From: an archaeon | GTDB taxonomy: Archaea; B1Sed10-29; JAJSAI01 | NCBI GenBank assembly: GCA_024274695.1 | Contig: JAJSAI010000026.1 | Coordinates: 1-35,827, forward strand | Length of the DNA: 35,827 nt | Reading direction: 5' to 3' | Shown: piece after piece, positions 12,038 to 31,952 of the stretch | Numbering within the stretch: position 1 is the stretch's first letter | Layout of the letters: each line of letters opens with the position of its first letter | Made by a program: the position numbers and the translations under genes | Notes under the pieces: generated by a model | Database searches by the model: none | The model's input: the letters and a program-made list of their open reading frames with translations, nothing else | What the model was told of the DNA's origin: nothing

Positions 12038-13840
12038 TCATTCAGGCTTAGTTCTTTTACGTTTCTTCCTGCTCTTCTGTTTTTTGTAGGAATCTTCTTT
12101 GAGCAAGCCAAGGCTTTCCAGGACCCTCTTGCCCAGAGCCATGTCCCGCGACCCGCTTGCGATCTCCCTGAGATAGTGTTCCATGTGCTTGTTTCTCGCG
12201 AGAGCCAGCTTTTCTTTTCCTTTCATTGCGACCCTGATGTACTCTCCCATCTTCTCTCCGGCCAAGGACTCGGGTATCACCACAATGTCTGCCCCCGCGT
12301 CATACAACTCTATCACATCATGGGGCGTGTGGGCCCTGGCAAAGAATATGACCTTTTTGTTCTTCTTCTTGACCTCTTTTATCAGCGTTTTAGTGGTCTC
12401 CACGTCAGGGATTGTGGATATTATCATTTTCGCCTTGTCCAGGAAGAGCCTTTCCCTCACTTCTTCATTGTACGCGTCCCCGAAGATAACGTTGTACCCC
12501 CTTTCTTTCAGCGACTCCACGACATCCGGGTTGTAGTCTACTATCAGGAGTTTTCTCTTGCCTATCCTGGGGAGGATTCTGTTTCCTGACCTATCGCATC
12601 CTATGAGCACCACGTGATCCTTCCACTCTTTCTTAGGCTCTTCTCTGATAACCCTCCTGCTGAAGAACTCTCTGGTTATCTTCCGCTCAATCCTGTGGAA
12701 CAGGTAGTACACCTTGTTATTGTACCTGAAGGAGTAAGGGGTCAGCAGGATGGAGAAGATTATCACTATCGTCACCACGGAGAACAGTTCGGGAGTGAAC
12801 ACGCCCAGGTTGAGCCCGAGCATCGCGATTATGAAAGAGAACTCGCTCACCTGGCCCAGGGCCATGCCCGTGGTGACGGACACTCTGGCCCCGTATCCCA
12901 GCAGGAAGTATATCATTGCGCTGATCAGGGGCTTTGCTATTACTACTATGGCGAGCAGGGCGCCCAGGAGGATGAGATAGTTTTCCGGGGAGATTGATGT
13001 AAGCTGCATTCCCAGGGAGACGAAGAAGAGGGTTGCGAAAAAGTCCCTTAGAGACTTTATCTTCCCAAGGATCTCCATGTTGCAAGTGAAAGCCGACAAA
13101 GACATTCCTGCGATGAACGCCCCTATCGCTATAGAGAAGTGCAGTTGCGTGGCTATCCACATGAACGCAAAGCAAGTGGATACCGCGGTCAGGAACAAGA
13201 GTTCCTGGGACCGTACAGCAAAGTTGAGGACTTTTGGGACAACAAACTTGTTCGCCAAGAACGCTATCACTATCAGCCAAACCCCGCTGTACAAGATTCC
13301 CACGAACGCGTCCGCCGACATGAGCTCAACCCTCTCGCTTATGAAGGGCAGAACGAGGATGACTATGATGTCCTGTACTATCAGGATCCCTGTCAGGAGC
13401 CTGCCGTGCAGTGTGTCAAGCGCTCGGTTGTCTGACAGTATTTTTATGATGATCATGGTGGAGCTGAACGACACGATAAGGCCTATGAACACTGACGCCA
13501 TCTGAGGCAGGCCCAGAAGCCTGCTGACTGTGAAGCCCAGCAGGAACGTTAGGGCCACCTGAATGACCCCTGCCAGGGTGCTCACGAACCCCATCCCCCT
13601 GAGCTTGTCAAGACTTATCTCCACACCCGCCCCGAACAGCAGAAAAGCAATGCCCAGCTCTGAAAGGGCTCTTATCTCCTCGCTCCCGGTTATCAGCCCG
13701 AGGCCGAGGGGCCCGAGGGTAATGCCTGCTACAACGTACGCCAGCAGCAGAGGCTGCCGTAGTTTTTTCGCCACGAACCCCAGGAGCGTGGCTGTTACTA
13801 CCATCAGACCAATGTCAGAAAGGATCGCGTACCCGCTCAT
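12038..13840 (-). CDS. Cation:proton antiporter (CPA2/KefB-like) with C-terminal TrkA-N domain
   Basis: LRQPLLLAYVVAGITLGP, SELGIAFLLF, SFSSTMIIIKIL, GILIVQD, LRDFFATLFFVSLG, QVSEFSFII, VIFGDA, GADIVVIPE. Confidence 0.93.
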   Translation of the reverse strand: MSGYAILSDIGLMVVTATLLGFVAKKLRQPLLLAYVVAGITLGPLGLGLITGSEEIRALSELGIAFLLFGAGVEISLDKLRGMGFVSTLAGVIQVALTFLLGFTVSRLLGLPQMASVFIGLIVSFSSTMIIIKILSDNRALDTLHGRLLTGILIVQDIIVILVLPFISERVELMSADAFVGILYSGVWLIVIAFLANKFVVPKVLNFAVRSQELLFLTAVSTCFAFMWIATQLHFSIAIGAFIAGMSLSAFTCNMEILGKIKSLRDFFATLFFVSLGMQLTSISPENYLILLGALLAIVVIAKPLISAMIYFLLGYGARVSVTTGMALGQVSEFSFIIAMLGLNLGVFTPELFSVVTIVIIFSILLTPYSFRYNNKVYYLFHRIERKITREFFSRRVIREEPKKEWKDHVVLIGCDRSGNRILPRIGKRKLLIVDYNPDVVESLKERGYNVIFGDAYNEEVRERLFLDKAKMIISTIPDVETTKTLIKEVKKKNKKVIFFARAHTPHDVIELYDAGADIVVIPESLAGEKMGEYIRVAMKGKEKLALARNKHMEHYLREIASGSRDMALGKRVLESLGLLKEDSYKKQKSRKKRKRTKPE

Positions 13841-13919
13841 GGTATCCCTTGAAATGCGCTGCGGGTATATAAAGGCTGGCGAAAGGGCTTTTAGGGTCCT
13901 CGTCCAAAAGACGAGTATA

Positions 13920-14855
13920 ATGGAAGACCTGTTGTTCGCGGCGAAGTACCCCTTTTCCAGGAGAGCTCGGGACATTCTCTCAGAGTATGCCCTTACGGAT
14001 GACTATGACACGCTGGAAAAGGCTTACGAGCAGACGGTCTACTGGTTGAATGAACAGGACTACTACTCCGAACTAAAGGGAATGGAGAACGCGTCTCCCT
14101 CAGAACTGGAGTTCAAGGTGGTCTGCTTCCCTCTGGCTAAGATCATGGCAGGAGTCGCGGGCAGGCACGTTTTATCCAGGCTTGGGAAGGCGTTTGCAAA
14201 GCGCACCGAAGTGTTCCTGGTCAACAGCGGGGAAGACTCTTCCAGTCTCATGAAAGAACTTTTCGGTGATACAGAAAAGGTCCACGTAAAAGACTTCCTG
14301 GAGAACAGGCCTCCTGGCATAAAACTGGCTGAAACAGGTCTTGACAGAGGATGGGTTCCTGTGAACCGAGAGCTCGGGATAAAACTGGTGTCCAGGGCGG
14401 TGTATAACAGTATCCTGTCAACCAGAACCCCGAAAGGGCTTGGCAAGAACATCCTCTTTTTTGCCGGCGAGCTGGCAAAGGAAACATTCCCTGAAGAGCA
14501 GGTCACGGGCCCTGTGTCTTTCCCGTCCTTCCCGCCTTGCATACGAAAGATAATCAGCGATCTTGAATCAGGAGAAAAGGTCGGCCACGCTCCAAGATTT
14601 GTTCTGGCCACTTTCCTCGCGAACATAGGCATGTCCAAGGAAGAGATAGTAAAGTTCTACGAAAAACAGCCTAATTTTGACAGGAAAAAAACATTATACC
14701 ACGTTTCCAGCGTGTTCAAGGGCCAGGGCAGTGCGAAGTACAGCGTGCCCTCCTGCCGCACGCTGGAATCCTACGGGCTCTGCGTCAGGGACAGCACGTG
14801 CAAGTGGAGCCATCCTCTCACGTACTACAAGAGAAGGAGGAGGAAACTATCATGA
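13920..14855 (+). CDS. priL: DNA primase large subunit PriL (compact form)
   Basis: AKYPF N-terminus, FPPCI, H..RFVLATFL, Y..PSC.TL..YGLC....C...HPL.YY Fe-S domain; start moved to ATG 13920. Confidence 0.92.
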   Translation: MEDLLFAAKYPFSRRARDILSEYALTDDYDTLEKAYEQTVYWLNEQDYYSELKGMENASPSELEFKVVCFPLAKIMAGVAGRHVLSRLGKAFAKRTEVFLVNSGEDSSSLMKELFGDTEKVHVKDFLENRPPGIKLAETGLDRGWVPVNRELGIKLVSRAVYNSILSTRTPKGLGKNILFFAGELAKETFPEEQVTGPVSFPSFPPCIRKIISDLESGEKVGHAPRFVLATFLANIGMSKEEIVKFYEKQPNFDRKKTLYHVSSVFKGQGSAKYSVPSCRTLESYGLCVRDSTCKWSHPLTYYKRRRRKLS

Positions 14856-15808: not shown

Positions 15809-16411
15809 TTGGACTACGAGACTCTCAGGAGACTTCAGAGGACTGAAAGGAACAACGCTGACCTGGCCAGTCTCCCGGAGGACTTTTACACCCAGCTCGC
15901 CGAGTACATAAACTCTCTGGTGAAAGAGTACAAGAGGACAGGCTCTCCTCAGGACATCATGAAACTGGAGAACGTGATCAAGATATCAAAAGACATATTC
16001 CAGAGAAGGTCTCAGAAAATGCTCTTGCACGCTCTGAGGACTCTGAAAGAGAACAGCAACAGCGCGCCCGAGCTCGTTGAAATAGAGAAAAAATGCTATC
16101 GGGACATTGTCAGCAGTCTGGAGGAAATGAACGGCGAGTTCGAAAAAGTGCTTACTGGAGAAAGGCCTGTTCTGGGCACCGAGGCCGCGGAAGAGGCGAG
16201 CAAGGCCCTGGAGAAAATAGAGGAGATTGGAGAGCCTGCGGGCGAAGAACAAACTTTAAATAGTGTTCTGGTGAGAATACTACAAAACGTTCCGAAATTC
16301 GTTTCCTCTGACATGCAGGAGTACGGGCCTTTCCAGCCACGCGACCTGGTAAGGTTGCCTGAAAAAGAGGCCAGGCTCCTGATAGAAAGAGGTTTTGCGG
16401 AGAAGGTGTAA
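15809..16411 (+). CDS. GINS complex subunit (Gins15/Gins51 type)
   Basis: LASLPEDFY helical A-domain, then VRILQNVPKFV...YGPF...DLVRLP..EA.LLIERG.AE B-domain; follows priS. Confidence 0.9.
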   Translation: MDYETLRRLQRTERNNADLASLPEDFYTQLAEYINSLVKEYKRTGSPQDIMKLENVIKISKDIFQRRSQKMLLHALRTLKENSNSAPELVEIEKKCYRDIVSSLEEMNGEFEKVLTGERPVLGTEAAEEASKALEKIEEIGEPAGEEQTLNSVLVRILQNVPKFVSSDMQEYGPFQPRDLVRLPEKEARLLIERGFAEKV

Positions 16412-16431
16412 TTTGTTATTTTTATCCCGCT

Positions 16432-17580: not shown

Positions 17581-18395
17581 AATATTTCCTCCATCGCCTC
17601 GTGAATAACTTGAAGTTCCTTATAGCTTGGTAAAACGGTTTGAGTCGTACTTTTTAAGAGGGAGCAGTGTGCTTGGGTTGTTAGATAAAACCATCTGTTA
17701 GTTTTGGAACCATTTATATTTAAGGAATCCAGTATCATTTCTTTTTTATTGCCTTTTTTAGATTTGTATTCAAATAAGATTTGATCGTTATCCTTGTGTT
17801 TTAAAACAATTTTAATATCTTTATTATCTTTAGTCGTAAAAGCATATTCTTTAATATATTTCTCTTCTTTTTTGTGATGGAATGTAACACCTTCCGGAAA
17901 AATATAACAGAGAACATCAACAGGATGACAGATGATATCCCTAATAGTTGTATCTTCATAAAACATTTTGGTAGTGAAGTATGTGATCCTAATTTTTTGT
18001 GGAATATTTTCTTTTATTTTTTGCACAATCGGAAGTAGTCTCCAATTATAGTTTCCATAAATTTTTTTGGCAATATCTTTTGAAATGTTTAGTAACTCAT
18101 GTCTATTCGAGCATACTGGTTTTTCGCATAAGATCACTTTTGCACTCCTTCCATAAGTTTCCAGAATTTTTTTGTGAGTTGAAGTAGGAGTTGCAATGAT
18201 AAGCAAGTCTGGTTTCTTTATGTGGTTGTTTAGGGGTTGCTTAAAATTTATTTTTTTAAACTCCTCCAACTTTTGCGTATCTATATCTGCAAGTTCTATC
18301 TCTTTAATTTCAGGGTTTAAAAGCGCTGCTAAAAAATGTATTTTTCCGATGTTTCCTATACCTATTATCTTTACGCTTGATTTCTTATCCAACAT
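17577..18395 (-). CDS. Gfo/Idh/MocA family NAD(P)-dependent oxidoreductase
   Basis: IIGIGNIGKIH Rossmann motif, IATPTSTH, ILCEKP, D..CHPVD. Confidence 0.88.
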   Translation of the reverse strand: MLDKKSSVKIIGIGNIGKIHFLAALLNPEIKEIELADIDTQKLEEFKKINFKQPLNNHIKKPDLLIIATPTSTHKKILETYGRSAKVILCEKPVCSNRHELLNISKDIAKKIYGNYNWRLLPIVQKIKENIPQKIRITYFTTKMFYEDTTIRDIICHPVDVLCYIFPEGVTFHHKKEEKYIKEYAFTTKDNKDIKIVLKHKDNDQILFEYKSKKGNKKEMILDSLNINGSKTNRWFYLTTQAHCSLLKSTTQTVLPSYKELQVIHEAMEEIL

Positions 18396-19372
18396 AATGG
18401 GTCCTTTCCGTCATCTTTAATCGCGGCTCTGCATCCTCCGTAACACATGTAAAAGTATGGGCACCCCTCGCATGTTTTAGGGTGTTGATTTCTCCATTGA
18501 ATGAAAATAGGGTGATTTTGGTAAATTTTTTCTACGATGTTATACTTGTCAAGCAAAAAGTTATCCTTGTCTTCAGAGTAGGGGGCAGTAGTGCATGGGA
18601 CCATATATCCGTTTACCGTAATACTGGCAGAAATGAACCCTGCGCCACATCCTAAGACGCAAGAAGATGATTCCCTTTTAGGAGGGGTTGTTAACAAAAA
18701 TTCAAAAGGACTTTTTAATATTTTTATATTTCTTGATTTTCTTTCTTTTATTAATTGAAATAATACTTTTTTGTATTCTTCTTTAGTGATTTGAAATTTT
18801 TTCTGAAATTTATTTTTAGGGATAAAACGCATTATTCTGAAAGAAGGAACCCCTCTTTCTTCTAGAAAATCTAGTAGTCTAAATACTTCTCCGTTTTGTA
18901 TAACTTTCTTTGTAAGGATAGTTCCAACTACAAATTTTTTATTTTTTTCAATTAGCTTTTCTATTCCTGAAAGTGTAAGATCAAAGCTTCCTTTTCCTCT
19001 AAAATATTCATGTGTTTCTTTTAATCCATCTAAACTTATTTGGATTCTATCAAAATGAAGTAAGGAATCTATCCTCGAATTATCAATGAGTGTTCCATTT
19101 GTAGTGATGCTTGCTATCCCCTTTAATTGATGTATCTTCTTGACAATTTTATCAAGATCGTGCCTTAGTAAAGGTTCGCCTCCAGATAAATGAACTAAAT
19201 TTCCTGGTTCAACAGTCTTTTCTAAAATTTTTATTATTTCAGCAGTTGAAAGTTCTTTATTGTTTTCTTTCTTTATTTCATGAAAGTAAAAATAGCAATG
19301 TTTACATTTTAAATTACATCTTGAAGTAATATCTATAAACCACATGACAGGTCTAGGCAAAATCAAATACAT
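18371..19372 (-). CDS. Radical SAM/SPASM enzyme (PqqE/MftC/NirJ-like), no fused RRE
   Basis: ITSRCNLKCKHCY, SGGEPLLR, TTNGTLI, QISLDG..ETH..FRG.GSF, SPASM CGAG....I...G...PC...CEGC.....CYGGCRA...DPLC. Confidence 0.93.
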   Translation of the reverse strand: MYLILPRPVMWFIDITSRCNLKCKHCYFYFHEIKKENNKELSTAEIIKILEKTVEPGNLVHLSGGEPLLRHDLDKIVKKIHQLKGIASITTNGTLIDNSRIDSLLHFDRIQISLDGLKETHEYFRGKGSFDLTLSGIEKLIEKNKKFVVGTILTKKVIQNGEVFRLLDFLEERGVPSFRIMRFIPKNKFQKKFQITKEEYKKVLFQLIKERKSRNIKILKSPFEFLLTTPPKRESSSCVLGCGAGFISASITVNGYMVPCTTAPYSEDKDNFLLDKYNIVEKIYQNHPIFIQWRNQHPKTCEGCPYFYMCYGGCRAAIKDDGKDPLCWIRNQA

Positions 19373-19376
19373 TAAG

Positions 19377-19412
19377 TTTAAATATTGGTTATTTCATCTA
19401 TTTAAATGGTGA
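19377..19412. promoter_or_regulatory. Divergent archaeal-type promoters (two TTTAAATA boxes) plus GGTGA SD for the peptide
   Basis: TTTAAATA on + at 19377-19384 (peptide) and on - at 19399-19406 (about 26 nt before rSAM ATG); GGTGA at 19408-19412. Confidence 0.6.
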
Positions 19413-19417
19413 TTATT

Positions 19418-19507
19418 ATGAATAAAAAAAAGATTTGGGAAACACCTACAATAGAAGAAATAGATTTAACATTATATTGTTGTACCCCTACTGATGATGA
19501 AAAATGA
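19418..19507 (+). CDS. Putative RiPP precursor peptide, 29 aa: MNKKKIWETPTIEEIDLTLYCCTPTDDEK
   Basis: Hand-translated, not in ORF track; GGTGA SD; WxxPxI leader motif resembling RRE-binding motifs of PqqA and lasso leaders; sits in the middle of a cluster with PqqD, rSAM and peptidase; in-frame upstream ATG at 19406. Confidence 0.8.
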   Translation: MNKKKIWETPTIEEIDLTLYCCTPTDDEK

Positions 19508-19540
19508 ATACTTTTAATAACTTTTAAATCATTTTTGTTT

Positions 19541-20641
19541 TTAAAGAGAATATATTTTTTGATACTCTTTTACTGTCCTTTGAATATCAAATTGAGAGAG
19601 TACCCTTTTTCGTGCACCTTTTTCTATTTTTTGTTTAATTTTTATATTTTTTTCTAAAAAAAGAATATTTTTAATTATCTCTTTGGGTTTCCCAGGATGG
19701 ACTAGAACCCCAGACTTGAAATGAGTGATAATCTCTGGAATTCCACCAACTTTTGATGCAATTACTGCTTTTTCTGATGCCATGCCTTCTATTACTGAAA
19801 TGCCAAAAGGTTCTTCCCAAAGTGAAGGGACTAAAGCATAGTCTGAGATATTATAAAAATAAGGGATGTACTTGTAATCAAAGGGTCCGAAAATTATTCG
19901 GTCTAATAATGGATCATTAGCCCATTTTATAGATGAGAGAACTTTTTGTGTTTTATGAGCACTCTCGTTTCCGGTCAAAATAAGCACGAACTCTTGTGGG
20001 AGTTGTTTTAATGTTTTGATTAGAATGTCTACTCCCTTTTCTGGAGAAATTCTAGATGTACAGAGGAGAATTCTTTTTTCCAAGAAATCACTATTTAACA
20101 TTTTTGAAATTTTTTCAAAACATTCAAATTTATCTCGCTTTTTGAAAAGAGAAGTATCTATTCCATTATAGATTACTATAATTTTTTCAGAAGGGATAAT
20201 CTTTTTTAATTCAATTTTTATATACTCGCTTGGAACGACTATCTTTTTTAAGCATTGAGATTCATTTAATAATTTGAATACTGGTTTTAATTCAAGGTAG
20301 ACGGGAGTGTGATGGGAATAAATAATCTCATAGTTTTTGCTCCCAAATGTAGTGATTATAAAAAACGCAAAATCAATGGTGTGTATTTGAATTATATCCG
20401 GTGATATCTCATTGATAATTTCGCTAATAATTTTTTTCGTTTTCTGATAATCTAATGGTCCCCTTGATGGGAGGGGCAAATGATAACACTTCCCGGTTTT
20501 TTGAATGGTTGAAACGTTATCATCACAGAAGGCGATAAAATGCTTGTTTTTTTTGTCAGAGTTTGTAAGATTGTAAAGAAGAGTTTCGACGCCACCTATC
20601 GTGTTTGCATAGTCTCTAGTTAAATGTAAAACTTTTTTCAT
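19541..20641 (-). CDS. Glycosyltransferase family 4 (GT-B)
   Basis: IGGVET, VIYNGID, SRISPEKGVD, PSLWEEPFGISVIEGMAS, SKVGGIPEII. Confidence 0.93.
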   Translation of the reverse strand: MKKVLHLTRDYANTIGGVETLLYNLTNSDKKNKHFIAFCDDNVSTIQKTGKCYHLPLPSRGPLDYQKTKKIISEIINEISPDIIQIHTIDFAFFIITTFGSKNYEIIYSHHTPVYLELKPVFKLLNESQCLKKIVVPSEYIKIELKKIIPSEKIIVIYNGIDTSLFKKRDKFECFEKISKMLNSDFLEKRILLCTSRISPEKGVDILIKTLKQLPQEFVLILTGNESAHKTQKVLSSIKWANDPLLDRIIFGPFDYKYIPYFYNISDYALVPSLWEEPFGISVIEGMASEKAVIASKVGGIPEIITHFKSGVLVHPGKPKEIIKNILFLEKNIKIKQKIEKGARKRVLSQFDIQRTVKEYQKIYSL

Positions 20642-20642
20642 A

Positions 20643-21590
20643 TTAAAAAAATTCTTTTATTTTTCTTTTAAATAATTTATATTCTTTATTTATTCTTTTG
20701 TAATATTTTATTTTTACTTTTTTTATTTTTTGTTTGTAAAATTGATAATTTTCTAAAGTATCTGTTATTTTTTCTTTCCAACAGCAAATATTATTTATTT
20801 TTTTTACTAATAATTCTTTTGGAACATAATCAGGAATTCCTCCTATATCACTTCCTAGAACTGGTATTTCATTTACAATTGATTCTATACATACACGAGG
20901 AGAAGGATCTTCCCATAATGATGGAACTAGAGTTATTTTGGTTTTTTCGTAAATGAATTTTATTTGATTGTATTGTACAGGTTCCAAAATTTTGACATTT
21001 TCAAAAGGGAATTTTGGAATATTTTGTGTGGTGCTTTTTTTTATTATTAAAAAATTTTTGTCTGGATTATTTTTTATCAGTTTATAGACGATTTCTGCGC
21101 CTTTTTTTAGGGAGGGGTTAATAAATGTTATCCATTTTTGCATGCTATCATCTTTTTTGTTATTAATTACCTCTTTTGAAATAATCATTGGTTCCAGGAG
21201 AATACTCTCTTTACTTATGTATGAATATTTGTTTTGTGTGTACTTTGAATTAAATACGATTACGTCTGCTGAGTTATTTATATCATTGACTCGGGTGAAG
21301 AAAAAAACAGGAATTTTTTGCATTTTTCCATATTCGATCGCATATTTTGCCCACGCTAGTTGAGTGAAAATGATACTAGGTTTTATTTTTTTTAACATTT
21401 TTTTGATATTACTTGGGTGAATTATTTCATAAATTTTGATATTATCAATTTTTTCAGGTCTTTTCGGATGAATAAATGTAAGTACAGAACAATCATATCC
21501 ATCTTTTTTTAACTTTCTTAGGAGAGTATGTGCACTTATTTCAGAACTTCCTATTCTTGGTAAGTATTGTTCAGAAATGAAAAGTATCAT
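20643..21590 (-). CDS. Glycosyltransferase family 4 (GT-B), second copy
   Basis: ILFISEQYLPRIGSSE, FINPSLKKG, LVPSLWEDPSPRVCIES, SDIGGIPD; start moved to ATG 21590. Confidence 0.88.
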   Translation of the reverse strand: MILFISEQYLPRIGSSEISAHTLLRKLKKDGYDCSVLTFIHPKRPEKIDNIKIYEIIHPSNIKKMLKKIKPSIIFTQLAWAKYAIEYGKMQKIPVFFFTRVNDINNSADVIVFNSKYTQNKYSYISKESILLEPMIISKEVINNKKDDSMQKWITFINPSLKKGAEIVYKLIKNNPDKNFLIIKKSTTQNIPKFPFENVKILEPVQYNQIKFIYEKTKITLVPSLWEDPSPRVCIESIVNEIPVLGSDIGGIPDYVPKELLVKKINNICCWKEKITDTLENYQFYKQKIKKVKIKYYKRINKEYKLFKRKIKEFF

Positions 21591-21665
21591 CAATAATAAA
21601 AAGGAAAATAATACATAAATAAAAGTATATGTTTTTATAAAAATTTCAAAGGAGGTGCGAAGATA

Positions 21666-21917
21666 ATGCCTTGGAAACCAAAAGTAAACGAAAACATACA
21701 AATAAAAAAAACGGAAGAGGGTGATATTCTTATAGATATTCTTTCAGGTAAATTATTTAAATTAAATAATACAGGTTCAGATATTCTTCATTTATGTAAT
21801 GGAAAAAATGAAATAAATATGATTGTCTCTCAACTTCAGAAAAATTATGATAAAGTAAAAGAAGAAGAAGTAGTATCTTATCTAGAGAATCTAAAAAGGA
21901 TAGGGCTTGTAATATGA
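21666..21917 (+). CDS. PqqD family peptide chaperone / RiPP recognition element (RRE)
   Basis: 83 aa, three beta strands then LNNTGSDILHLCNG...IVSQLQKNY...V.SYLENL...GLV; GGAGGTG SD at 21651-21657. Confidence 0.9.
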   Translation: MPWKPKVNENIQIKKTEEGDILIDILSGKLFKLNNTGSDILHLCNGKNEINMIVSQLQKNYDKVKEEEVVSYLENLKRIGLVI

Positions 21918-22243
21918 GCTTTACTCAAGATGAAATGCGTTTGATTCGAAAAGCAATGGATCTATTTGAAGTGGTTTACTTTAAAGCGGTAGGTAACAGT
22001 ATGTTTCCTACTATCAAAGAAAATCAAATTGTAAAAGTAAAAAAAGTAGAATTAGATAAAATCAAAATTGGAGATATTTTAGTTTTTGAAGTTTTTGGAA
22101 GTATTATAGCACATAGGGTTGTACGTATAGAACATAAAAAATTCGGCCCTATTTTTATAACTAAAGAAGATAATTTTCAAAATTATCCATCTTCGAAATA
22201 TTTAATAGCAAAACCCGAAGATGTAATTGGGATAATATCTTAG
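21914..22243 (+). CDS. Soluble S24/S26 family serine peptidase (candidate leader peptidase)
   Basis: GNSMFPTI, IKIGDILVF, IAHRVV, FITKEDN; no TM helix; ATGA-coupled to the PqqD gene. Confidence 0.85.
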   Translation: MSFTQDEMRLIRKAMDLFEVVYFKAVGNSMFPTIKENQIVKVKKVELDKIKIGDILVFEVFGSIIAHRVVRIEHKKFGPIFITKEDNFQNYPSSKYLIAKPEDVIGIIS

Positions 22244-22253
22244 AATATTTAAA

Positions 22254-23996
22254 TCATTTTTTTTGAATTACATAATTGTTGATAATTAGATAATCCAATC
22301 CCATAGTATAAAAGTCTCTAATTGCATCTTTTAACGTTCTTACAATTGTTTTTCCCGCTATATTAAATGAAGTGTTCAATACAGCAGGAATTCCTGTTTC
22401 GTTTTCGAAGTTCTTTATTAATCTGTAGAACTTTTCATTATCTTTTGAATGTAAGATCTGTGGACGTGTTGTCTGATCTACATGCACAACCGCAGGGATT
22501 ATGTCGGGTGAGGATACAGACACAGTAAAGGTCATATATTTTAAAGCATGAAGTTTTTTGGCAGGGACTTCTAAGATTTTTAATGCTTTTTCTTCTAATA
22601 TTGTTGGGGCTAGTGGTCTCCACAATTCTCTTCCTTTTATTAGATTTACTCTTTTTTTGTTGCATGAAAGAGAAGGATTTGCTAAGATACTTCTGTTTCC
22701 CAAGGCTCGCGGTCCAACTTCCATTCTCCCTTGAAACCATCCTACTATTCTGTCTTGGCATAGGAGTTCTGCAGCATATCTTTCAGGATCTGGGACGTTC
22801 TCATAGGATATCCTTATTTTTTTGAGATAACTTTCGATTTTTTCATCGTGTTCTTCTTTTCCCAGGTAAGGAGTGAATGGATATGTATCTATCTCCTTTC
22901 CTGTTAACATTTCATATCCTATAATTGCAGAACCAAGAGCTGTACCATAATCTCCTGCAGTTGGAGGGGCGAAAAAGGCTATTTCGGGATACTTTCTCGT
23001 TAGGTAACCATTCAATCTGCAATTAAGAAAGAGGCCTCCTCCTAATGCAATATTTTCTATGTCCTCTTTTTCTTTTTTGAACTTTTGGATCAAGCTTTCT
23101 ATAATTCCTGAGATATATTCCTCAGTTATTTTTTGTACCGCCCAAGCTAGATTTTTTTGATGAACGGTAGGTTCGGCACAATTCTTAGAAATAGGTATTT
23201 TAGATGATAAAACAGCTAGAATTTGATTTGTTAAGTGATGTTTTGTAATTCTAGTAAAATCGAAAGTATCTTCTTTGGAGACGATCATTTCTTTGAATTT
23301 ATGGTAGATTTGAGACTCAGAGCCGTATGCAGAAAGACCCATCGTCTTTCCTTCGGATTTGAGCCATCCAAGACCAAGATATCCGGTAACATAGTGGTAT
23401 AGCATGGCAGGAGATTGCGGGTATTTTACGCTTAATATCTTTTCGAGGAATCCGTTTTCATATTTCCATGCTGTAAGTGACTCAAATTCTCCCCTCCAGT
23501 CTGAGATTATGACAAGTCCCTTTCTGAAGGGAGCAATCTTTGAGACTGCCGCAGCATGTGAGAGGTGATGGGGTACAGCTATAACCTGAGGTGGAGAGAA
23601 TGTATGGTTTTTGATCCACTCTTTCAGGGTCTTCAAACTGGAGACGTATCTTCTGTGTTCTTGTGAGAGGCGTCTAGTTAAAGTTATCAGTATCCTGTTT
23701 ATGTCTTTTGACCCTTCAATGAGGAATGGTTCCGCTTCTGAGACAACTCTCCGATTGAAAAGAGTTACATCCCAGGGTATAGTTATGGCTTCTACTTCAT
23801 CTAGGATAGTACCTGTTGTGGAGAGACAGAATGTTATGGACCCTGAGGGAAATGTTCTTTCGCTTCCTTTGATTCTTGTATGTCTCTCTTCTTCTTCCAT
23901 TGCTAATATTTTTCCGTTTTTTGATATGCAGGCTGAAGGATCATGGGTTCCCATGGACGGTAATGTTGGATTAATTCCTAATATCACTCCTTTCAT
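22254..23996 (-). CDS. NodU/CmcH/TobZ family O-carbamoyltransferase
   Basis: HDPSAC, EEERHTRIK, HHLSHAA, EGKTMGLSAYG, GGLFLNC, GRMEVGPRALGNRSILA, RELWRPLAP, VHVDQTTRPQ, LNTSFN. Confidence 0.95.
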   Translation of the reverse strand: MKGVILGINPTLPSMGTHDPSACISKNGKILAMEEEERHTRIKGSERTFPSGSITFCLSTTGTILDEVEAITIPWDVTLFNRRVVSEAEPFLIEGSKDINRILITLTRRLSQEHRRYVSSLKTLKEWIKNHTFSPPQVIAVPHHLSHAAAVSKIAPFRKGLVIISDWRGEFESLTAWKYENGFLEKILSVKYPQSPAMLYHYVTGYLGLGWLKSEGKTMGLSAYGSESQIYHKFKEMIVSKEDTFDFTRITKHHLTNQILAVLSSKIPISKNCAEPTVHQKNLAWAVQKITEEYISGIIESLIQKFKKEKEDIENIALGGGLFLNCRLNGYLTRKYPEIAFFAPPTAGDYGTALGSAIIGYEMLTGKEIDTYPFTPYLGKEEHDEKIESYLKKIRISYENVPDPERYAAELLCQDRIVGWFQGRMEVGPRALGNRSILANPSLSCNKKRVNLIKGRELWRPLAPTILEEKALKILEVPAKKLHALKYMTFTVSVSSPDIIPAVVHVDQTTRPQILHSKDNEKFYRLIKNFENETGIPAVLNTSFNIAGKTIVRTLKDAIRDFYTMGLDYLIINNYVIQKK

Positions 23997-24135
23997 GATT
24001 TCTCCTCTAAATCTTTTGATCTCTTTTATAGATTCAGTCGTTGAGCCTATAAAATAATGGGTTCTTTTAATGTATTAATTTTAAGAAAGAAAGCTTATTA
24101 AACTAAATAATTCACAAAAAAGAAAGGTGTTGAAG

Positions 24136-26815: not shown

Positions 26816-28063
26816 ATGGAATACGCGGACCTGCACCTGCACTCCAAGTACTCTCGAGCAACCAGCCAAAAGATGAACCCGCTGGACCTGCCGAAAGCAG
26901 CCAGGGAAAAAGGACTTACCCTCTTGGGCACTGGTGACTTCACTCACCCTGAGTACTACAGGGAGTTAGTCCAGGGTCTGGGGGAATTAGGCCCGGACGG
27001 CTTTTACCACAAGGACGGCGTGAAGTTCGTGCCCACATGCGAGATCTCGCTGATGTACTCTGACGGTAAAAAACAGCGTAAAGTGCATCTCCTCCTCATA
27101 CTGCCGGACCTTGAGGCCGTGGCACAGCTTAATTCAGAGCTTGGGAAATGGGGAAGGCTGGACTATGACGGGAGACCAATCTTCGGGAGGACCTGTCCAG
27201 AGCTCGTGGACCTTGTTGCCAGCATAACCCCCGACGCGGAAGTGATCCCAGCCCACGCGTGGACACCCTGGTTCGGAGTATTCGGCTCCAAGTCAGGCTT
27301 TGACTCCCTAAAGGAAGCCTTCCAGGATACTGTGAACAAAATTCACGCAATAGAAACGGGCCTGAGCAGCGATCCTGAGATGAACTGGATGCTCAGCCAG
27401 CTTGACGGAATAAACCTGGTTTCCTTCTCCGACGCTCACTCCCCCTACTCCTTCAGGCTGGGGAGAGAGGCCACTCTCTTTGACGTGCGGAACTACAAAG
27501 AGCTCGTGAACGCGATACGAACAGGGAAAGGGCTCGTGAGCACGATAGAGGTTGACCCAGCGTACGGGAAATACCACTACGACGGGCACAGGGAGTGCGG
27601 AGTGTTCATGACCCCTGAAGATGCTAAGAAGCACGGTAACATCTGCCCGGTCTGCGGCAAGCCCTTGACAGTTGGCGTGATGCACAGGGTCGCAGAACTT
27701 GCAGACAGGCCTTACGGGTACAGGCCAAAAAACGCAAAGCCGTTCAAGAGGGTCGTCCCTCTCGCCGAGCTGATAGCCGCCGCCGAGAAGTCAACCCTCT
27801 CCTCCAAAAAGGTTTTCACGAAAACGTTCCAGGCGATCGCCGCGTTCGGGAGCGAGTTTAACGTGCTGTTCAACGTCCCGTACTACGAGCTAGAGCGAGT
27901 GCTCGGCGACAAGATCGCGAGAATGGTCATGCTTAACAGGGAAGAGAAAATAAAAATAAGGCCAGGGTACGATGGAGTTTACGGGGAGATCATAGTTGAC
28001 GATGACCCCGGGCCAGTTTCCTCTTCCGGAGGCCCTCAGAAGACGCTAAGCCATTTCCTTTAA
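26816..28063 (+). CDS. endoQ: Endonuclease Q (PHP domain + Zn finger)
   Basis: DLHLHSKYSRATS, GTGDFTHP, PAHAWTPWFG, ETGLSSDP, SDAHS, GKYHYDGHR.C, CPVCG..LTVGV.HRV, PGYDGVYG. Confidence 0.93.
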   Translation: MEYADLHLHSKYSRATSQKMNPLDLPKAAREKGLTLLGTGDFTHPEYYRELVQGLGELGPDGFYHKDGVKFVPTCEISLMYSDGKKQRKVHLLLILPDLEAVAQLNSELGKWGRLDYDGRPIFGRTCPELVDLVASITPDAEVIPAHAWTPWFGVFGSKSGFDSLKEAFQDTVNKIHAIETGLSSDPEMNWMLSQLDGINLVSFSDAHSPYSFRLGREATLFDVRNYKELVNAIRTGKGLVSTIEVDPAYGKYHYDGHRECGVFMTPEDAKKHGNICPVCGKPLTVGVMHRVAELADRPYGYRPKNAKPFKRVVPLAELIAAAEKSTLSSKKVFTKTFQAIAAFGSEFNVLFNVPYYELERVLGDKIARMVMLNREEKIKIRPGYDGVYGEIIVDDDPGPVSSSGGPQKTLSHFL

Positions 28064-28600
28064 GAGGTCAAGGCTCTTAGCGAACAGGTCTCTCATCCTA
28101 GGGAACCTCATTGCCGCGGCAGGATGAGGGAGCACGATCACAGTCCTTTTCCTACCCTCAATTTCTGCCACTATCCGCTTTCCAGAATCCTTTCCAACAC
28201 AGTATTCTTTACCAAGGACTGCTTTCACAGCAGTATTCCCAGCGAGAAGCAAGAAATCAGGGTCCACCAGGCCTATCTGCTCCAGAGTGTACGGGAGGCA
28301 TGCTCTGACCTCTTCTGGTGTGGGCGTCCTGTTCCGAGGGGGCCGGCACTTCACCGTCCCCGTAATGAAAAATTCTTTCCTGTCAAAGCCCACCCTCTCC
28401 AGTTCTCTCTCAAGGAACCGTCCTGACAGCCCAACGAACGGCCTGCCCATCTCATCCTCTTTTTTGCCCGGCGCTTCCCCGAGCAGGAAAAACCGCGCGT
28501 CTTCCGGGCCCTCTCCTGGAACAGCATGGTTCCTGGTTTTCCAGAGGCTGCATCTCCTGCACGCCCGTATCTCGCGCGCAAGATCATCCAATTTGCTCAT
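28046..28600 (-). CDS. udg: Family 4 uracil-DNA glycosylase
   Basis: CRRCSL...R..AVPGEG, GEAPG..ED..GRPFVG.SG, VKCRPP.NR.P...E...C, HPAA. Confidence 0.95.
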   Translation of the reverse strand: MSKLDDLAREIRACRRCSLWKTRNHAVPGEGPEDARFFLLGEAPGKKEDEMGRPFVGLSGRFLERELERVGFDRKEFFITGTVKCRPPRNRTPTPEEVRACLPYTLEQIGLVDPDFLLLAGNTAVKAVLGKEYCVGKDSGKRIVAEIEGRKRTVIVLPHPAAAMRFPRMRDLFAKSLDLLKEMA

Positions 28601-28650
28601 CAGGATAAGAAAGTCCTGTATATGTATTTTAACCTTTCTCAAATATTCTT

Positions 28651-29940
28651 TCAGGAAAACATGCTGGTGATGTCATCTATTCTGACTTTCTTCTCTTCTC
28701 CCGTGCGCATGTCCCTTACCGTGACCTCGCCTTCGGCCAGGTCCTTTGGTCCCACGAACACTACATATGGGACGCCCTTGGCGGCAGCGTACTCCAGCTG
28801 TTTCCTGAGCTTGCGCTTCATCAGGTCGGTTTCTGCATTGATCCCAGCGCTCCTGAGAATCTTCAGTATCTTGAACGCTTCTTTCCTTACCTGGTCGTTC
28901 ACGGGGGCTACGAACACCCTGCACGCGGTCTTGGGCAAGTCCTTGAACATGCCCTTCTCTTCCATGAGGAGGATTAGCCTTTCCACGCCTATGGCTATTC
29001 CAGTGGCGGGGGTTGACTTTCCGCCGAGCAGGCCTATTAGGTTGTCCCATCTCCCGCCTCCTGCCAGGGATCCTGTGAACTCTTTTGACCAGACTTCAAA
29101 CACCAGTCCTGTATAATATCCCAGGCCCCTGGCAAGGCTCAGGTCAAGCACTATCTCAGCGTCAGGGGAATAGTATTCAAGAGCCCTTGCCAGCCCTTCC
29201 AGTTCTTCAAAACCTTTTGTAGCGAGGTCGTTCTCAGGCTTTATCTTGTCCAGTCCAGAGTAAAGGCTCTCCTGCGATGTCACTCTTGACATGGCAGACT
29301 GTGCCAGGGGTTCAGGGAACCCTTTTTGAACGAGCTCTTCCAGGACCCCTTCTTCTCCTATCTTGTCAAGCTTGTCCAGGCTTCTCATGAACTCCTCGCA
29401 CTTTCCCTCGGGCACGCCTTCTTGGACCAGAAGGCCTTCCAGCAGGTTCCTTGAGTTAACCTTCACGTAAAAGTCAGAAAACCCGACTGCCTTGAGCGCG
29501 TCAACTGTCATGCTTATGATCTCTGCGTCAGCTTCTGGCTCTGCGGACCCTATTATGTCCGCGTCGCACTGGTAAAACTCCCTGTACCTTCCTTTCTGAG
29601 GTCTGTCGTACCTCCAGACTTTCCCTATCTGGTACTTCTTGAACGGCAGGCTCAGGTTAGGGTTGTTGGTCACATACCTCGCGGCGCTCGTGGTGAACTC
29701 GAACCTGAGCCCAAGCTCCCTCCCAGCCTGGTCCTTGAAATAGTATATCTCCTTCTTTATTTCTTCTCCTCCACCCCCTTTTGCTGAGAGGAGGTCGTAG
29801 GACTCCACGGCGGGAGTGTCAAGCTCGTCAAACCCGTACCTTTCAAAAACCTCTCTGATCCTCCTGAAAACGTAGTTCCTTTTCACGGTCTCCTCGGGCC
29901 CGTAGTCCCTAATTCCCCTGGGGGGCTGGAATCTTGTCAT
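28651..29940 (-). CDS. hisS: Histidine--tRNA ligase
   Basis: PRGIRDY, LRFEFT, VWRYDRPQKGRYREFYQCDAD, LARGLGYYTGLVFE, GGGRWDNL, GIAIGVERL, C-terminal anticodon-binding domain. Confidence 0.97.
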   Translation of the reverse strand: MTRFQPPRGIRDYGPEETVKRNYVFRRIREVFERYGFDELDTPAVESYDLLSAKGGGGEEIKKEIYYFKDQAGRELGLRFEFTTSAARYVTNNPNLSLPFKKYQIGKVWRYDRPQKGRYREFYQCDADIIGSAEPEADAEIISMTVDALKAVGFSDFYVKVNSRNLLEGLLVQEGVPEGKCEEFMRSLDKLDKIGEEGVLEELVQKGFPEPLAQSAMSRVTSQESLYSGLDKIKPENDLATKGFEELEGLARALEYYSPDAEIVLDLSLARGLGYYTGLVFEVWSKEFTGSLAGGGRWDNLIGLLGGKSTPATGIAIGVERLILLMEEKGMFKDLPKTACRVFVAPVNDQVRKEAFKILKILRSAGINAETDLMKRKLRKQLEYAAAKGVPYVVFVGPKDLAEGEVTVRDMRTGEEKKVRIDDITSMFS

Positions 29941-30272
29941 CTTCGTCCGCCTCTGCTAAAACGAGTGATGGGGCCGCGGCCGGGATTTTCTCCGCAGGAG
30001 GAAAACGCGGGAGGTTTTCCTCTCCGCGGTTTTGAACCCGGGCTGAGGGATCCACAGTCCCTAGTGCTAACCGCTACACTACCGCGGCCACCGATCTCCA
30101 TGACGTTTCTTGAGATAGGCAGTCCTTTTTCTCGGTCTGGTTTTAAAAGGATTACCCTGTCCTCTTCCAGGACGAGTTTAACAGAACCAGAGAGGTCAAG
30201 CCTCTGCCTTGCTAGCGCTGGGAGGACGAGCCTGTTCTTCTTGTCAAGCTTTACCAGCAGGGTGAAGGCGAT
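29937..30272 (-). CDS. AbrB/MazE/MraZ-like small DNA-binding protein whose frame reads through the tRNA-His gene; start codon uncertain
   Basis: VKLDKKNRLVLPALARQRLDL.G.V.LVLEEDRVILLKP swapped-hairpin pattern; TATA-like TTTTATATA near 30314-30322; no in-frame ATG/GTG/TTG between that box and the domain. Confidence 0.6.
   Translation of the reverse strand: MAFTLLVKLDKKNRLVLPALARQRLDLSGSVKLVLEEDRVILLKPDREKGLPISRNVMEIGGRGSVAVSTRDCGSLSPGSKPRRGKPPAFSSCGENPGRGPITRFSRGGRR
29969..30089 (-). tRNA. tRNA-His(GTG) with encoded G-1 and CCA, and a 45-nt intron in the T-loop (59/60)
   Basis: G-GCCGCGG/CCGCGGC-C-CCA acceptor, GTGT/GCAC D-stem, AGGGA-CTGTGGA-TCCCT anticodon arm, CCGGG-TTCAAA[intron 30030-29986]T-CCCGG; spliced length 76 nt. 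Confidence 0.93.
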
Positions 30273-30349
30273 CCACTCCGAAAACCTCCAAGAAGAATTA
30301 GGGCCGCTCCCACTATATAAAACCAGGTGTTTTCCCGACTTTTTTGGGC

Positions 30350-31243
30350 TCACATTTCCCTTAGCCTTCTTATCCTCTCTTCTATTGGAGGGTGGGTGCT
30401 GAAGAGGCCTTTCAGGTTCACGCTGCCGAGGGGGTTGGCTATGAAAAGATGCGCGTTACCAGGATTAGCGCCCTTCAGCGGTTGCTTGTAGCCAGCAATT
30501 TTTTCCAGGGCCCTGGCCAGCCCTTCAGGGTATCTTGTGAGCATGGCGCTTGTCGCGTCTGCCATGAACTCCCTCTTGCGCGAGATCACGGCCTTGATCA
30601 TGGCCGCGAAAATTGGGGCTACTATGGAGGCGATCACTGCTACCAGCAGCACTATCAACGCAGCCTGGCCCTTGTCCCTGTCTCCGCTAAAGACTCCGTG
30701 GAATGCCATGTTCCGGAACAAGAATGCGAGCGCCACGATCGTCCCAGCCATCACCGCGGCAAGGGTCATTACTTTCATGTCGTTGTTCCTGATGTGGCCC
30801 ATCTCGTGGCCTATCACGCCCCTTATCTCGTCCTTGTCCATCCTGTTCAACAGGCCTGTCGTGGCGCAGATTACTGCATTGCGGGGGTTCCTTCCGGTCG
30901 CGAACGCGTTAGGCGCGGGATCGTCTATCACGTACGCTTTAGGGGTTGGAAGACCCGCTGCTATGGCCATTTCCTCTACAGCGTGCTGGAACTCCGCTTC
31001 CTTGAGGTTCCTCATGTTCGCGGGCCTGGCCTTGAAGTGCTTGAGCACTATCCTGTCAGAATAATAGTACTGGTACACGGTCACGAGGAGCATTACCACG
31101 AACACCGCGACAGTTATCCAGTACGTCATGAAGTACCCGAACACCAGGCCTATTCCCAGGAAAAAGGTTAGGAAGAACGCCATTAGGGCTATTGAAAGGA
31201 GGTCATTCCTGCGTATCTCCGAAAAGAAAAACCTCCTGCCCAC
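30350..31243 (-). CDS. htpX: Zinc metalloprotease HtpX (M48)
   Basis: PNAFATGRNP, TTGLL, GVIGHEMGHIRN.D, ISRKREFMADA, LFSTHPPIEERI. Confidence 0.95.
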   Translation of the reverse strand: MGRRFFFSEIRRNDLLSIALMAFFLTFFLGIGLVFGYFMTYWITVAVFVVMLLVTVYQYYYSDRIVLKHFKARPANMRNLKEAEFQHAVEEMAIAAGLPTPKAYVIDDPAPNAFATGRNPRNAVICATTGLLNRMDKDEIRGVIGHEMGHIRNNDMKVMTLAAVMAGTIVALAFLFRNMAFHGVFSGDRDKGQAALIVLLVAVIASIVAPIFAAMIKAVISRKREFMADATSAMLTRYPEGLARALEKIAGYKQPLKGANPGNAHLFIANPLGSVNLKGLFSTHPPIEERIRRLREM

Positions 31244-31270: not shown

Positions 31271-31852
31271 TCAGAACTTTACCTTGGGCACCGCCCTCTC
31301 AGCCTCTTCTATTTCAAAGAACTCTCTTGGCTTGAACTTGAATACCCTCGCGAAGATGTTCGTGGGGAACATCTGTATCTTGTTGTTGTACGCTAGCACT
31401 GAGTCGTTGTAGAACTGTCTGGCGTACGCGATCTTTGACTCTATGCTCTCTAACTGTTCTTGAAGTAGCTTGAAGTTCTCAGCAGCCCTCAGCTGAGGGT
31501 AGTTTTCTGCCACCGCGAAGAGGCTCTTGAGGGCGGAGGTGAGCATGTTGTTGGCTTTTGCTTTCTCCGCCACGGTCCCCGCCTGCATGAGCGCTGCTCT
31601 CGCCTTGGTGACCTCCTCGAAAACTGTTTTCTCATGCTTTGCGTACCCCTTTACTGTTTCCACAAGGTTGGGGACCAGGTCTGCTCTCTTCTTGAGCTGT
31701 ACGTCTATCTGGCTCCAGGCGTTGTCCACCTGGTTCCTCGCGCCAACGAGAGAATTGTACGCGTATATCGCGTAGAGCACAAGGGCCACGAGGATGATTA
31801 TTCCAATAAGGACTGTCATGCTCAGTCCGAACAGGGATAGTAATGTCATCAT
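31271..31852 (-). CDS. lemA: LemA family protein
   Basis: [64 protein letters not shown]. Confidence 0.96.
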
Positions 31853-31952
31853 GCTGCTCTCACCGGTCAAGAAAAGGATGGCAGGTATAAAAATCTTTCT
31901 CGGCTGGCGCCGCGAAAGTTATTTAAACACACCTTCTCTTGTTCTATGCCGG

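Follow-up and report, generated by a model that had tools for sequence, protein, structure and literature searches.

Several described systems bear on a small gene that adjoins a tRNA gene. MraZ proteins have two tandem domains and about 150 aa, and their gene heads the division and cell-wall cluster. Co-transcripts of tRNA and mRNA, with the tRNA as punctuation, are known from mitochondrial polycistrons and from the bacterial tRNA-tufB operon. Control of synthetase genes by tRNA sensing is represented by the T-box and the thrS operator. In archaea, tRNA position 59/60 is a listed site of non-canonical introns and relaxed bulge-helix-bulge (BHB) motifs are described (PMC4090602). According to a study of Pyrobaculum, C/D box sRNA genes overlap the 3' ends of protein genes, the RNA 5' end provides the stop codon in 23 cases, and co-transcription followed by excision from the mRNA is proposed (PMC6009581). 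The same study states that, compared with C/D box sRNA genes, tRNA genes are more than 40-fold less likely to overlap orthologous protein genes in a conserved way (PMC6009581). In the open-access literature, no report was found of an AbrB-like gene that is joined to tRNA-His.

The window is the whole stretch of DNA analysed here, 35,827 nt of contig JAJSAI010000026.1 (assembly GCA_024274695.1) from an archaeon of the GTDB lineage B1Sed10-29. It contains a co-directional string of lemA, htpX, a small gene, tRNA-His, hisS and udg. All features from htpX to hisS lie on the minus strand, as do all those described below unless the plus strand is named. The htpX-like gene (30350..31243) encodes an M48 protease (Pfam Peptidase_M48, E=2.7e-38), and hisS (28651..29940) encodes a histidyl-tRNA synthetase (HisRS) of 429 aa (Pfam tRNA-synt_His, 1.1e-55; HGTP_anticodon, 3e-20). 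Between the two, ORF listing gives a mechanical open frame of 138 codons (29937..30353) with a GTG start and a TGA stop. The GTG that opens this frame shares bases with the TGA stop of htpX (30352-30350) as GTGA, and the TGA that closes it (29939-29937) overlaps the hisS ATG (29940-29938) as ATGA. The sequence-only reading had placed a tRNA-His gene in frame within an AbrB-like ORF, with a 45-nt (3n) insert and an ATGA overlap with hisS. All of these elements are present. A repeat search around the locus returned the tRNA and intron helices and otherwise weak repeats.

The tRNA-His(GUG) gene consists of two exons, both placed by ARAGORN on the spliced sequence and by the acceptor inverted repeat. 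The 5' exon (30031..30089) contains G-1, the acceptor strand, the D-arm, the anticodon arm (GTG), a 4-nt variable loop, the T-stem 5' strand and the six leading T-loop bases. The 3' exon (29969..29985) contains the final T-loop base, the T-stem 3' strand, the acceptor 3' strand, C73 and an encoded CCA. G-1 (30089) lies opposite C73 and makes the acceptor helix 8 bp long (30082-30089 / 29972-29979). After in silico removal of the 45 nt between the exons, ARAGORN reports a tRNA-His(gtg) of 75 nt with CCA. It reports nothing on the raw sequence, including the region run with intron options. Rfam gives no match at gathering score in the whole window. At an E-value threshold there is one sub-threshold tRNA match (26.5 bits vs 29), which mistakes the start of the insert for the 3' strand of the acceptor. 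No Rfam family except tRNA is found in 29800-30500 at E<=10, and T-box control of hisS was rejected on this result.

The 45-nt insert (29986..30030) interrupts the T-loop at position 59/60 and is a putative non-canonical intron. Its length is a multiple of three, and an A run blurs the exact boundary by up to 3 nt. Within it there is a long internal hairpin (RNAfold; inverted-repeat arms). A suboptimal RNAfold structure, 1.9 kcal/mol above the MFE, contains the T-stem and, next to it, a TTC:GAA helix with a bulge on either side. In this structure the central helix has three pairs (TTC:GAA) with an A.A mismatch as the fourth, and it lies between two A-rich 3-nt bulges. The insert is read as a putative intron with a relaxed BHB-like motif, which the splicing endonuclease would excise. 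No splicing endonuclease gene was found in the window.

The 138-codon frame has an unconserved stretch (residues 1-25), an AbrB-like core (residues 26-87) and a tail encoded by the tRNA, the intron and the spacer (residues 89-138). In an AlphaFold2 model of the whole ORF, averaged over 10-residue blocks, the mean pLDDT is 83-91 for residues 31-80 and 61 for residues 81-90. It falls to 54-56 for residues 1-30 and 39-55 for residues 91-138, and both the N-terminal extension and the tail are modelled as low-confidence coil. The small gene has no stop codon of its own. Its frame crosses the tRNA, the intron and the spacer, and the 50 codons from G-1 to the TGA are free of stops. Each of the other two frames meets a TAG early in the tRNA, one at nt 8 and one at nt 13. 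Only the frame that has G-1 as the first base of a codon lacks a TAG near the 5' end of tRNA-His, and it therefore runs on to the TGA that overlaps hisS. Taken by itself, the frame in the window could be open by chance (P about 0.2). Between 19% and 22% of shuffles of the 150 nt remain open, as do 27% of all 150-nt frames across the window, and the caution voiced in the sequence-only reading, that such sequence can lack stops by chance, was justified. On the plus strand, one frame is likewise open across the tRNA and an antisense ORF of 145 aa is present. It is the recurrence of the arrangement among relatives, and not the window frame itself, that amounts to more than chance.

The conserved core of the small protein, as defined by profile searches and a fold model, comprises 62 residues (30093..30278) and is closed by the family motif S-[KR]-N-x-x-E-x. 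With all 138 aa of the ORF as query, a word-index search of proteins gave no match. An exhaustive HMMER search gave 14 matches at E<=1e-3 among 1.84 billion representatives, and a core-only profile gave 41 matches and one further match among longer proteins. The family census is 46 sequences, made up of the window copy and 45 relatives. Three MraZ-like, two-domain proteins (P0044, P0047 and P0048) are marginal family matches only and were excluded. The closest relative of the window core is P0005, with 59% identity, and two distant family members bear Candidatus Micrarchaeota names. In the window core, the near-invariant family positions are all intact, and the 62 codons contain no stop or frameshift.

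For the window protein alone, the likeness to AbrB is sub-threshold. The Pfam family PF04014 (MazE_antitoxin/AbrB) scores 16.6 bits against the whole ORF and 19.0 against the core, below the cut-off of 24.7, and Pfam MraZ scores 14-16 bits, below its cut-off of 23. At the family level, the likeness is solid. PF04014 matches 10 of 15 family members at E<=1 (best E 1.4e-4), and the family profile matches the AbrB N-domain (E=1e-4), Abh (1.9e-4) and SpoVT (0.014) in the PDB. The AF2 model of the core has a mean pLDDT of 90.7. Its best Foldseek matches are AbrB, Abh, Sso7c4, SpoVT and MazE, with probabilities up to 0.99, TM values of 0.5-0.7 and E-values of only 0.02-1 for so short a domain. The ESM Atlas contains generic SpoVT-AbrB look-alikes only. 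The small gene is predicted to encode a protein of about 60 residues with the SpoVT/AbrB fold, half of a swapped-hairpin barrel, and its family is found in uncultivated archaea. Weak MraZ matches occur in 12 of 15 family members (best 4.4e-6), and some database names read MraZ. Identity with MraZ was rejected on the single domain of about 60 residues, where MraZ has two in tandem. A type II antitoxin of the MazE, VapB or PrlF type was also rejected: by ORF listing and Pfam, the neighbours are htpX upstream and tRNA-His and hisS downstream, with no cognate toxin adjoining.

The relatives were read as protein sequences, and their frames and introns were deduced from the protein tails. In 14 of the 45 relatives (15 of 46 with the window), the tail reads into tRNA-His in the frame that begins a codon at G-1. 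In this frame, ten relatives outscore all 200 tail shuffles. P0011 and P0018 begin in the G-1 frame and, from the anticodon onward, beat all shuffles once the frame is shifted, and P0010 and P0046 were placed in the open tRNA-His frame by eye. A further five of the 45, also judged by eye, apparently stop at TAG triplets within the first 15 nt of the tRNA; four of these frames end at or near the D-loop TAG and one ends at the U8-A9-G10 TAG. Twenty members have tails that extend into the tRNA, and for these close linkage to tRNA-His is shown. The remaining 26 relatives, P0005 included, stop 0-9 residues past the conserved C-terminal motif. The sequence-only reading had inferred a feedback device that links tRNA-His maturation to HisRS expression, and it named a stop ahead of the tRNA in relatives as evidence against it. 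At the protein level, the recurrence of the AbrB-like gene with tRNA-His is borne out (14 of 45), and the preservation of the frame is not, with a stop ahead of the tRNA in 26 of 45.

The state of the stop differs inside clusters of 70% identity, as between P0022 and P0016 and between P0017 and P0023, and the position of the stop is therefore evolutionarily labile. The spacer between the motif and G-1 ranges from 0 to 5 codons across relatives, and the frame is kept. In an acceptor-stem test, the end codons are able to form the full 7-bp stem in 10 of 10 tails, against 25 of 88 cross-pairings of end codons between different sequences. Since the tails covary in the manner of an RNA acceptor stem and disorder is predicted for them, a conserved tRNA-encoded peptide is unlikely. 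P0010 is out of frame past its intron, and its close relative P0046 stays in frame. Judged from these comparisons, the pairing of the small gene with tRNA-His appears to be conserved and the tRNA-encoded peptide does not.

An own-pattern scan of the minus strand from lemA to hisS found only two TATA-like motifs. TTTATATA (30314..30321) lies in the unconserved N-terminal stretch and is a candidate promoter for the small gene. TTTTAAAA (30141..30148) falls within the AbrB-like core, its bases 52-59 nt ahead of G-1, and could serve tRNA-His and hisS as an internal promoter; the motif had already been pointed out near 30141-30149 in the sequence-only reading. It is flanked by an imperfect 12-nt inverted repeat (30118-30129 / 30145-30156). 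Motifs like TTTATATA precede other genes in the window. From the 3' end of the tRNA to the start of hisS there are 28 nt (29941..29968). This spacer contains a T4 run only and has no TATA-like motif in the same scan, which makes co-transcription of tRNA-His and hisS plausible. The 80 most similar HisRS loci were used for comparison; the best, from an Iainarchaeum MAG, reaches only 50% identity, and all but three have bacterial or unnamed titles (77 of 80). The small protein is absent from these loci by tblastn. No tRNA-His-like sequence was found near hisS at any of the 80, a weak negative since an intron-bearing tRNA can escape the tools used. ARAGORN found nothing at three archaeal hisS loci. 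A His-codon attenuator for hisS was rejected: the 138 codons include one His and the conserved core none, which leaves no attenuator-type sensing.

The preferred reading, to which we give a probability of roughly 0.55, is very tight packing of three co-directional genes, in which the tRNA-encoded tail is tolerated as a by-product and has no function as part of the protein. Under such packing, tRNA-His and hisS would be transcribed together, either from a promoter inside the small gene (TATA-like 30148-30141) or from one upstream, which could be the lemA promoter or the TATA-like 30321-30314. Release of the tRNA by RNase P, 3' processing and the splicing endonuclease would then part the mRNA of the small gene from that of hisS. 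The AbrB-like protein is probably dimeric and is predicted to be a DNA-binding regulator, which may act at its own locus. The ATGA and GTGA overlaps at this locus are the usual signature of translational coupling, and they count against a by-product.

It is possible, though unlikely, that translation of the small ORF through pre-tRNA-His is instead kept by selection. Ribosomes on the tRNA might vie with its folding and processing, and might here reach the hisS start through the ATGA overlap. The outcome would be a coupling of tRNA-His maturation, regulator synthesis and HisRS synthesis. Among members without a stop ahead of the tRNA, the frame is open in 15 of 20 sequences (binomial P = 2e-4 vs 1/3), a count in which the two short-tail frames were assigned by eye and which draws on gene finders that favour longer ORFs. 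By cluster, the frame is open in 11 of 16 at 70% identity (P 4e-3) and in 8 of 11 at 60% (P 9e-3), again vs 1/3 and with ancestry shared among clusters. Four of five tails with a visible intron regain the same frame after it (P = 0.045). This excess of open frames and the in-frame introns are a hint of selection for a stop-free frame. The retention of frame across spacers of varying length, the overlaps at the two ends of the ORF and the interval between tRNA and hisS, which has no promoter-like motif, point in the same direction. Against selection stand the 26 relatives that stop just past the motif and the five more that stop in the first 15 nt of the tRNA, the changes of state inside close clusters, and the tails that evolve as an RNA stem and not as protein and are predicted to be disordered. 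The loss of frame after the intron of P0010, next to the in-frame P0046, the lack of His-codon sensing with a core without His codons, and an ascertainment biased to long ORFs also weigh against it. We can suggest only tentatively, then, that the small AbrB-fold gene and tRNA-His form a selected dual-use locus in a group of uncultivated archaea, with the ORF held to the single stop-free frame of tRNA-His and even its introns held to 3n lengths. That translation through the pre-tRNA gates its folding and processing, and passes ribosomes to hisS in this genome, is likewise speculative. At such a dual-use locus, the small protein would be a regulator or binding factor devoted to tRNA-His and HisRS.

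The start of the frame bears on whether the window copy is expressed. The caution over the start codon in the sequence-only reading was justified: GTG 30353 is the only canonical in-frame start of the 138-codon frame, and where most homologues have their initiator Met, the window copy has TGG (30275-30273, codon 27) in the alignment. We consider it unlikely that the window copy is untranslated or weakly translated, with its start lost, the frame a relic, and tRNA-His and hisS the only functional parts. The TGG speaks for such a loss. A candidate GGAGG (30285..30289, identified by eye and alignment) lies 9 nt upstream of it and a TATA-like box about 40 nt upstream, as if a start had mutated, and a start at GTG 30353 adds 25 residues without counterpart in relatives and of low model confidence. 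A relic is at odds with the intact near-invariant positions, with a 62-codon core free of stops and frameshifts and with the identity of this core to that of P0005. The GTGA overlap with htpX has the form of a normal coupled start, and table 11 allows rare starts at ATC, the codon at 30272; both count against a lost start. That there is no real small gene, and that the AbrB resemblance and the open frame arose by chance in GC-rich sequence by the tRNA, accords with Pfam matches under the curated cut-offs, a chance probability of about 0.2 for the open frame and the antisense ORF, and is highly improbable, contradicted as it is by family searches that find 45 relatives with the same core and invariant residues, by the PDB profile match to the AbrB N-domain and by an AF2 fold whose top Foldseek matches are AbrB family members.

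Tight packing, the ordinary reading, has a practical value. Standard tRNA finders miss the intron-containing tRNA-His, and gene callers yield proteins with tRNA-encoded tails, several of which public databases already contain. The family also shows a small conserved gene whose stop drifts freely into the RNA gene beside it. Should the pairing prove functional, archaea would offer a rare conserved overlap of a protein gene with a tRNA gene, and a tRNA, its synthetase and a small regulator would be linked in a new way.

The small protein resembles the SpoVT/AbrB swapped-hairpin domain (PF04014; 1yfb, 2k1n, 2fy9, 2l66) in size, about 45-50 residues, in the N-terminal L-D-x-K-x-R-L-V-L-P strand-turn motif and in the helix that follows it. 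It differs from this domain in that its family has a conserved C-terminal extension of its own, ending S-[KR]-N-x-x-E, and in that the gene abuts a tRNA gene and has no toxin partner or sporulation context. Unlike MraZ (PF02381), it is a single domain of about 60 residues encoded between htpX and a tRNA. In its suboptimal fold, the insert would resemble the non-canonical BHB introns of archaea in two 3-nt bulges, a short helix by the T-stem and a stable intron hairpin. In contrast to these, its central helix has three pairs and an A.A mismatch, not four pairs, and the putative intron unusually lies in an open reading frame and preserves that frame. As in tRNA-sensing control, the cognate tRNA is immediately 5' of its synthetase gene. 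Unlike the T-box and the thrS operator, it is a real tRNA gene and not a mimic or sensor, and there is no T-box Rfam match. As in tRNA punctuation, coding regions flank the tRNA so closely that a promoter or terminator of its own would not fit, and tRNA processing would therefore define the mRNA ends. The arrangement also resembles the C/D box overlaps of Pyrobaculum in having a sense RNA gene at the 3' end of an ORF, and the relatives that stop at a TAG of the tRNA are similar to these. It differs from the Pyrobaculum cases in that the partner is a tRNA and the overlap can cover the entire RNA gene.

On the minus strand, lemA (31870..31271), htpX (an M48 protease gene, 31243..30350), a small ORF of 138 codons (30353..29937), hisS (29940..28651, 429 aa) and a family-4 uracil-DNA glycosylase gene (28642..28046) follow one another in a single direction. 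The htpX TGA and the small-ORF GTG overlap as GTGA, and the small-ORF TGA and the hisS ATG overlap as ATGA. The sequence-only reading is confirmed in its central observation, that an AbrB-like frame runs through the whole of a tRNA-His gene and ends in the overlap with hisS.

The gene content of the window is archaeal (LonB, Csl4, PCNA, PriL/PriS, GINS). The PriL ORF (13563..14855, plus strand) overlaps the 5' end of an antisense K+/H+ antiporter-like gene (12038..13975, minus strand) by about 410 nt (13563-13975). The PriL family match starts at residue 127 or later of the listed ORF, so the true PriL start probably lies downstream of 13563. Positions 16000-24000 form a low-GC island (27-37% GC versus about 52% elsewhere) whose genes, all on the minus strand, include a PseC/LegC-type aminotransferase, a dehydrogenase, a radical SAM/SPASM protein, two GT4-type glycosyltransferases and a NodU-like carbamoyltransferase. 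The island probably arrived by horizontal transfer as a cluster for glycan modification.

ARAGORN calls no tRNA in the raw window, and Rfam gives no match there at gathering score. A permissive Rfam scan gives a single sub-threshold tRNA match (30088..30022, 26.5 bits versus a cut-off of 29), which falsely takes the first bases of an insert (30022-30029, minus strand) as the acceptor 3' strand. These intron bases duplicate that strand; the Rfam model pairs them into a false acceptor stem and misses the true 3' exon. When 45 nt of the T-loop (about 30030..29986, minus strand) are taken out, ARAGORN run on the remaining sequence gives a 75-nt tRNA-His(gtg) with an encoded CCA. G-1 is encoded as the G at 30089, so that the acceptor inverted repeat is 8 bp. 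On folding, the insert forms a long hairpin. In a suboptimal structure, 1.9 kcal/mol less stable than the best one, the T-stem leads into a 3-nt bulge, then a TTC:GAA helix that includes an A.A mismatch, then another bulge. Such a structure would be a relaxed bulge-helix-bulge with the intron at 59/60, leaving a normal TTCAAAT T-loop. The part of PMC4090602 that lists non-canonical intron sites of archaeal tRNAs includes 59/60.

The small protein is real. Queried with the entire ORF, a word-index search gives no match, and in Pfam the window protein stays below threshold (MazE/AbrB, 16.6-19 bits versus 24.7; MraZ, 14-16 versus 23). Searched exhaustively with HMMER, 1.84 billion representatives yield 14 proteins at E<=1e-3, and a core-only profile gives 41 matches, with one further match from a search among longer proteins. 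Excluding three two-domain MraZ-like matches (P0044, P0047, P0048), the family consists of 45 relatives and the window copy, which keeps all invariant and near-invariant core residues. The family profile matches the AbrB N-domain in the PDB (E=1e-4). The AlphaFold2 model of the core has a mean pLDDT of 90.7, and its closest structural matches are AbrB, Abh, Sso7c4, SpoVT and MazE. When the whole 138-aa ORF is modelled, blocks spanning residues 31-80 are confident; both the N-terminal extension and the tail come out as coil of low confidence.

The start codon is unclear, as had been cautioned: most homologues start with a Met that aligns with TGG (30275-30273, minus strand), with GGAGG 9 nt 5' of it. 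This site (30273-30289, minus strand) looks like a former start that has lost its ATG, or like an assembly error. Among canonical starts, only GTG 30353 is in frame, and starting there extends the protein by 25 unconserved residues. The window copy would thus be coupled to htpX, use a rare start or have lost its start.

Numerous relatives match the query across the core and the tRNA-encoded tail alike in the HMMER search. Tails were classified by the residues past the C-terminal motif S-[KR]-N-x-x-E-x. In 15 of the 46 members, including the window, the tail enters tRNA-His with G-1 at codon position 1; in this frame each of 10 relatives outscores all 200 shuffles, P0011 and P0018 start in it and change frame past a shorter D-loop, and P0010 and P0046 were assigned by eye. 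Frames that stop at or near the D-loop TAG (4/46: P0008, P0013, P0017, P0021) or at the U8-A9-G10 TAG (1/46: P0023) were also assigned by eye. The other 26 of 46 stop 0-9 residues past the motif, among them P0005, which at 59% identity is the nearest relative, and 13 distant members, of which two bear Candidatus Micrarchaeota names. Stop-position states are mixed inside clusters of at least 70% identity. At the protein level, the proposed survey of relatives therefore bears out the pairing of AbrB-like gene and tRNA-His, which recurs, but not preservation of the frame, since 26 of 45 relatives stop before the tRNA.

Every recognisable tail has the GTG anticodon context. A full 7-bp acceptor stem is possible between the end codons in 10/10 tails tested versus 25/88 cross-pairings between different sequences, so the tails are tRNA genes evolving under RNA constraints. 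Translated tRNA-His makes up the C-terminal 25-60 residues of predicted proteins from NCBI (P0001, P0011), ENA, JGI and Logan. In this family, such tRNA-tailed predictions recur in public collections as an annotation artefact.

None of the 80 hisS loci closest to that of the window in a species-representative genome set contains the small protein or a tRNA-His-like sequence; for the tRNA this negative is weak, as the tools used can overlook a tRNA with an intron. The top match among these loci is an Iainarchaeum MAG (50% identical); three are archaeal and most are bacterial (Anaerolineae, Bacteroidota; 35-42% identity). The HisRS scan of this set finds no close representative of the window's lineage.

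Between lemA and hisS, a scan with our own pattern finds only two TATA-like motifs on the minus strand, TTTATATA (30321-30314) and TTTTAAAA (30148-30141), the second already named in the sequence-only reading. The same scan finds no TATA-like motif in the 28-nt spacer ahead of hisS, which has just a T4 run. Most simply, tRNA-His and hisS would be co-transcribed from a promoter that lies within the small gene or upstream of it; tRNA processing would then part the RNAs. An imperfect 12-nt inverted repeat (83% complementary; 30118-30129 / 30145-30156) flanks TTTTAAAA within the small gene and could be an operator or chance.

Most likely, the stop position is labile and the tail read from the tRNA is its tolerated by-product (probability about 0.55). 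Judged in the window alone, the open frame across the tRNA is not more than chance, as had been allowed for: the 50 codons from G-1 to TGA remain without a stop in 19-22% of shuffles, 27% of the 150-nt frames of the window are open, and one antisense frame is likewise open through the tRNA. Of the three sense frames, only the observed one can pass: in the tRNA, the other two run into TAG at nt 8 and nt 13. A selected read-through device across tRNA-His is unlikely, and the feedback on HisRS proposed in the sequence-only reading is hypothetical. Such a device would fit those members whose frame reaches the tRNA, in which it is open in 15/20 sequences (P = 2e-4 versus 1/3 expected), 11/16 clusters at 70% identity (P = 4e-3) and 8/11 at 60% (P = 9e-3), counts that are subject to by-eye reading of the short-tail frames, to the bias of gene callers towards long ORFs and to shared ancestry of the clusters, and in which relatives are read from protein sequences. 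It would also fit the variable motif-to-G-1 spacers (0 to 5 codons) and the tails with a visible intron, four of five of which regain the frame (window, P0003, P0015, P0046; P = 0.045); P0010 does not.

The arrangement that pairs the AbrB-like gene with tRNA-His is conserved and apparently undescribed; no description of an AbrB-like gene joined to tRNA-His was found in the open-access literature. In Pyrobaculum, according to the portion of PMC6009581 that treats such overlaps, C/D box sRNA genes frequently overlap the 3' ends of ORFs and supply the stop codon in 23 cases, and conserved overlap of tRNA genes is over 40-fold rarer.
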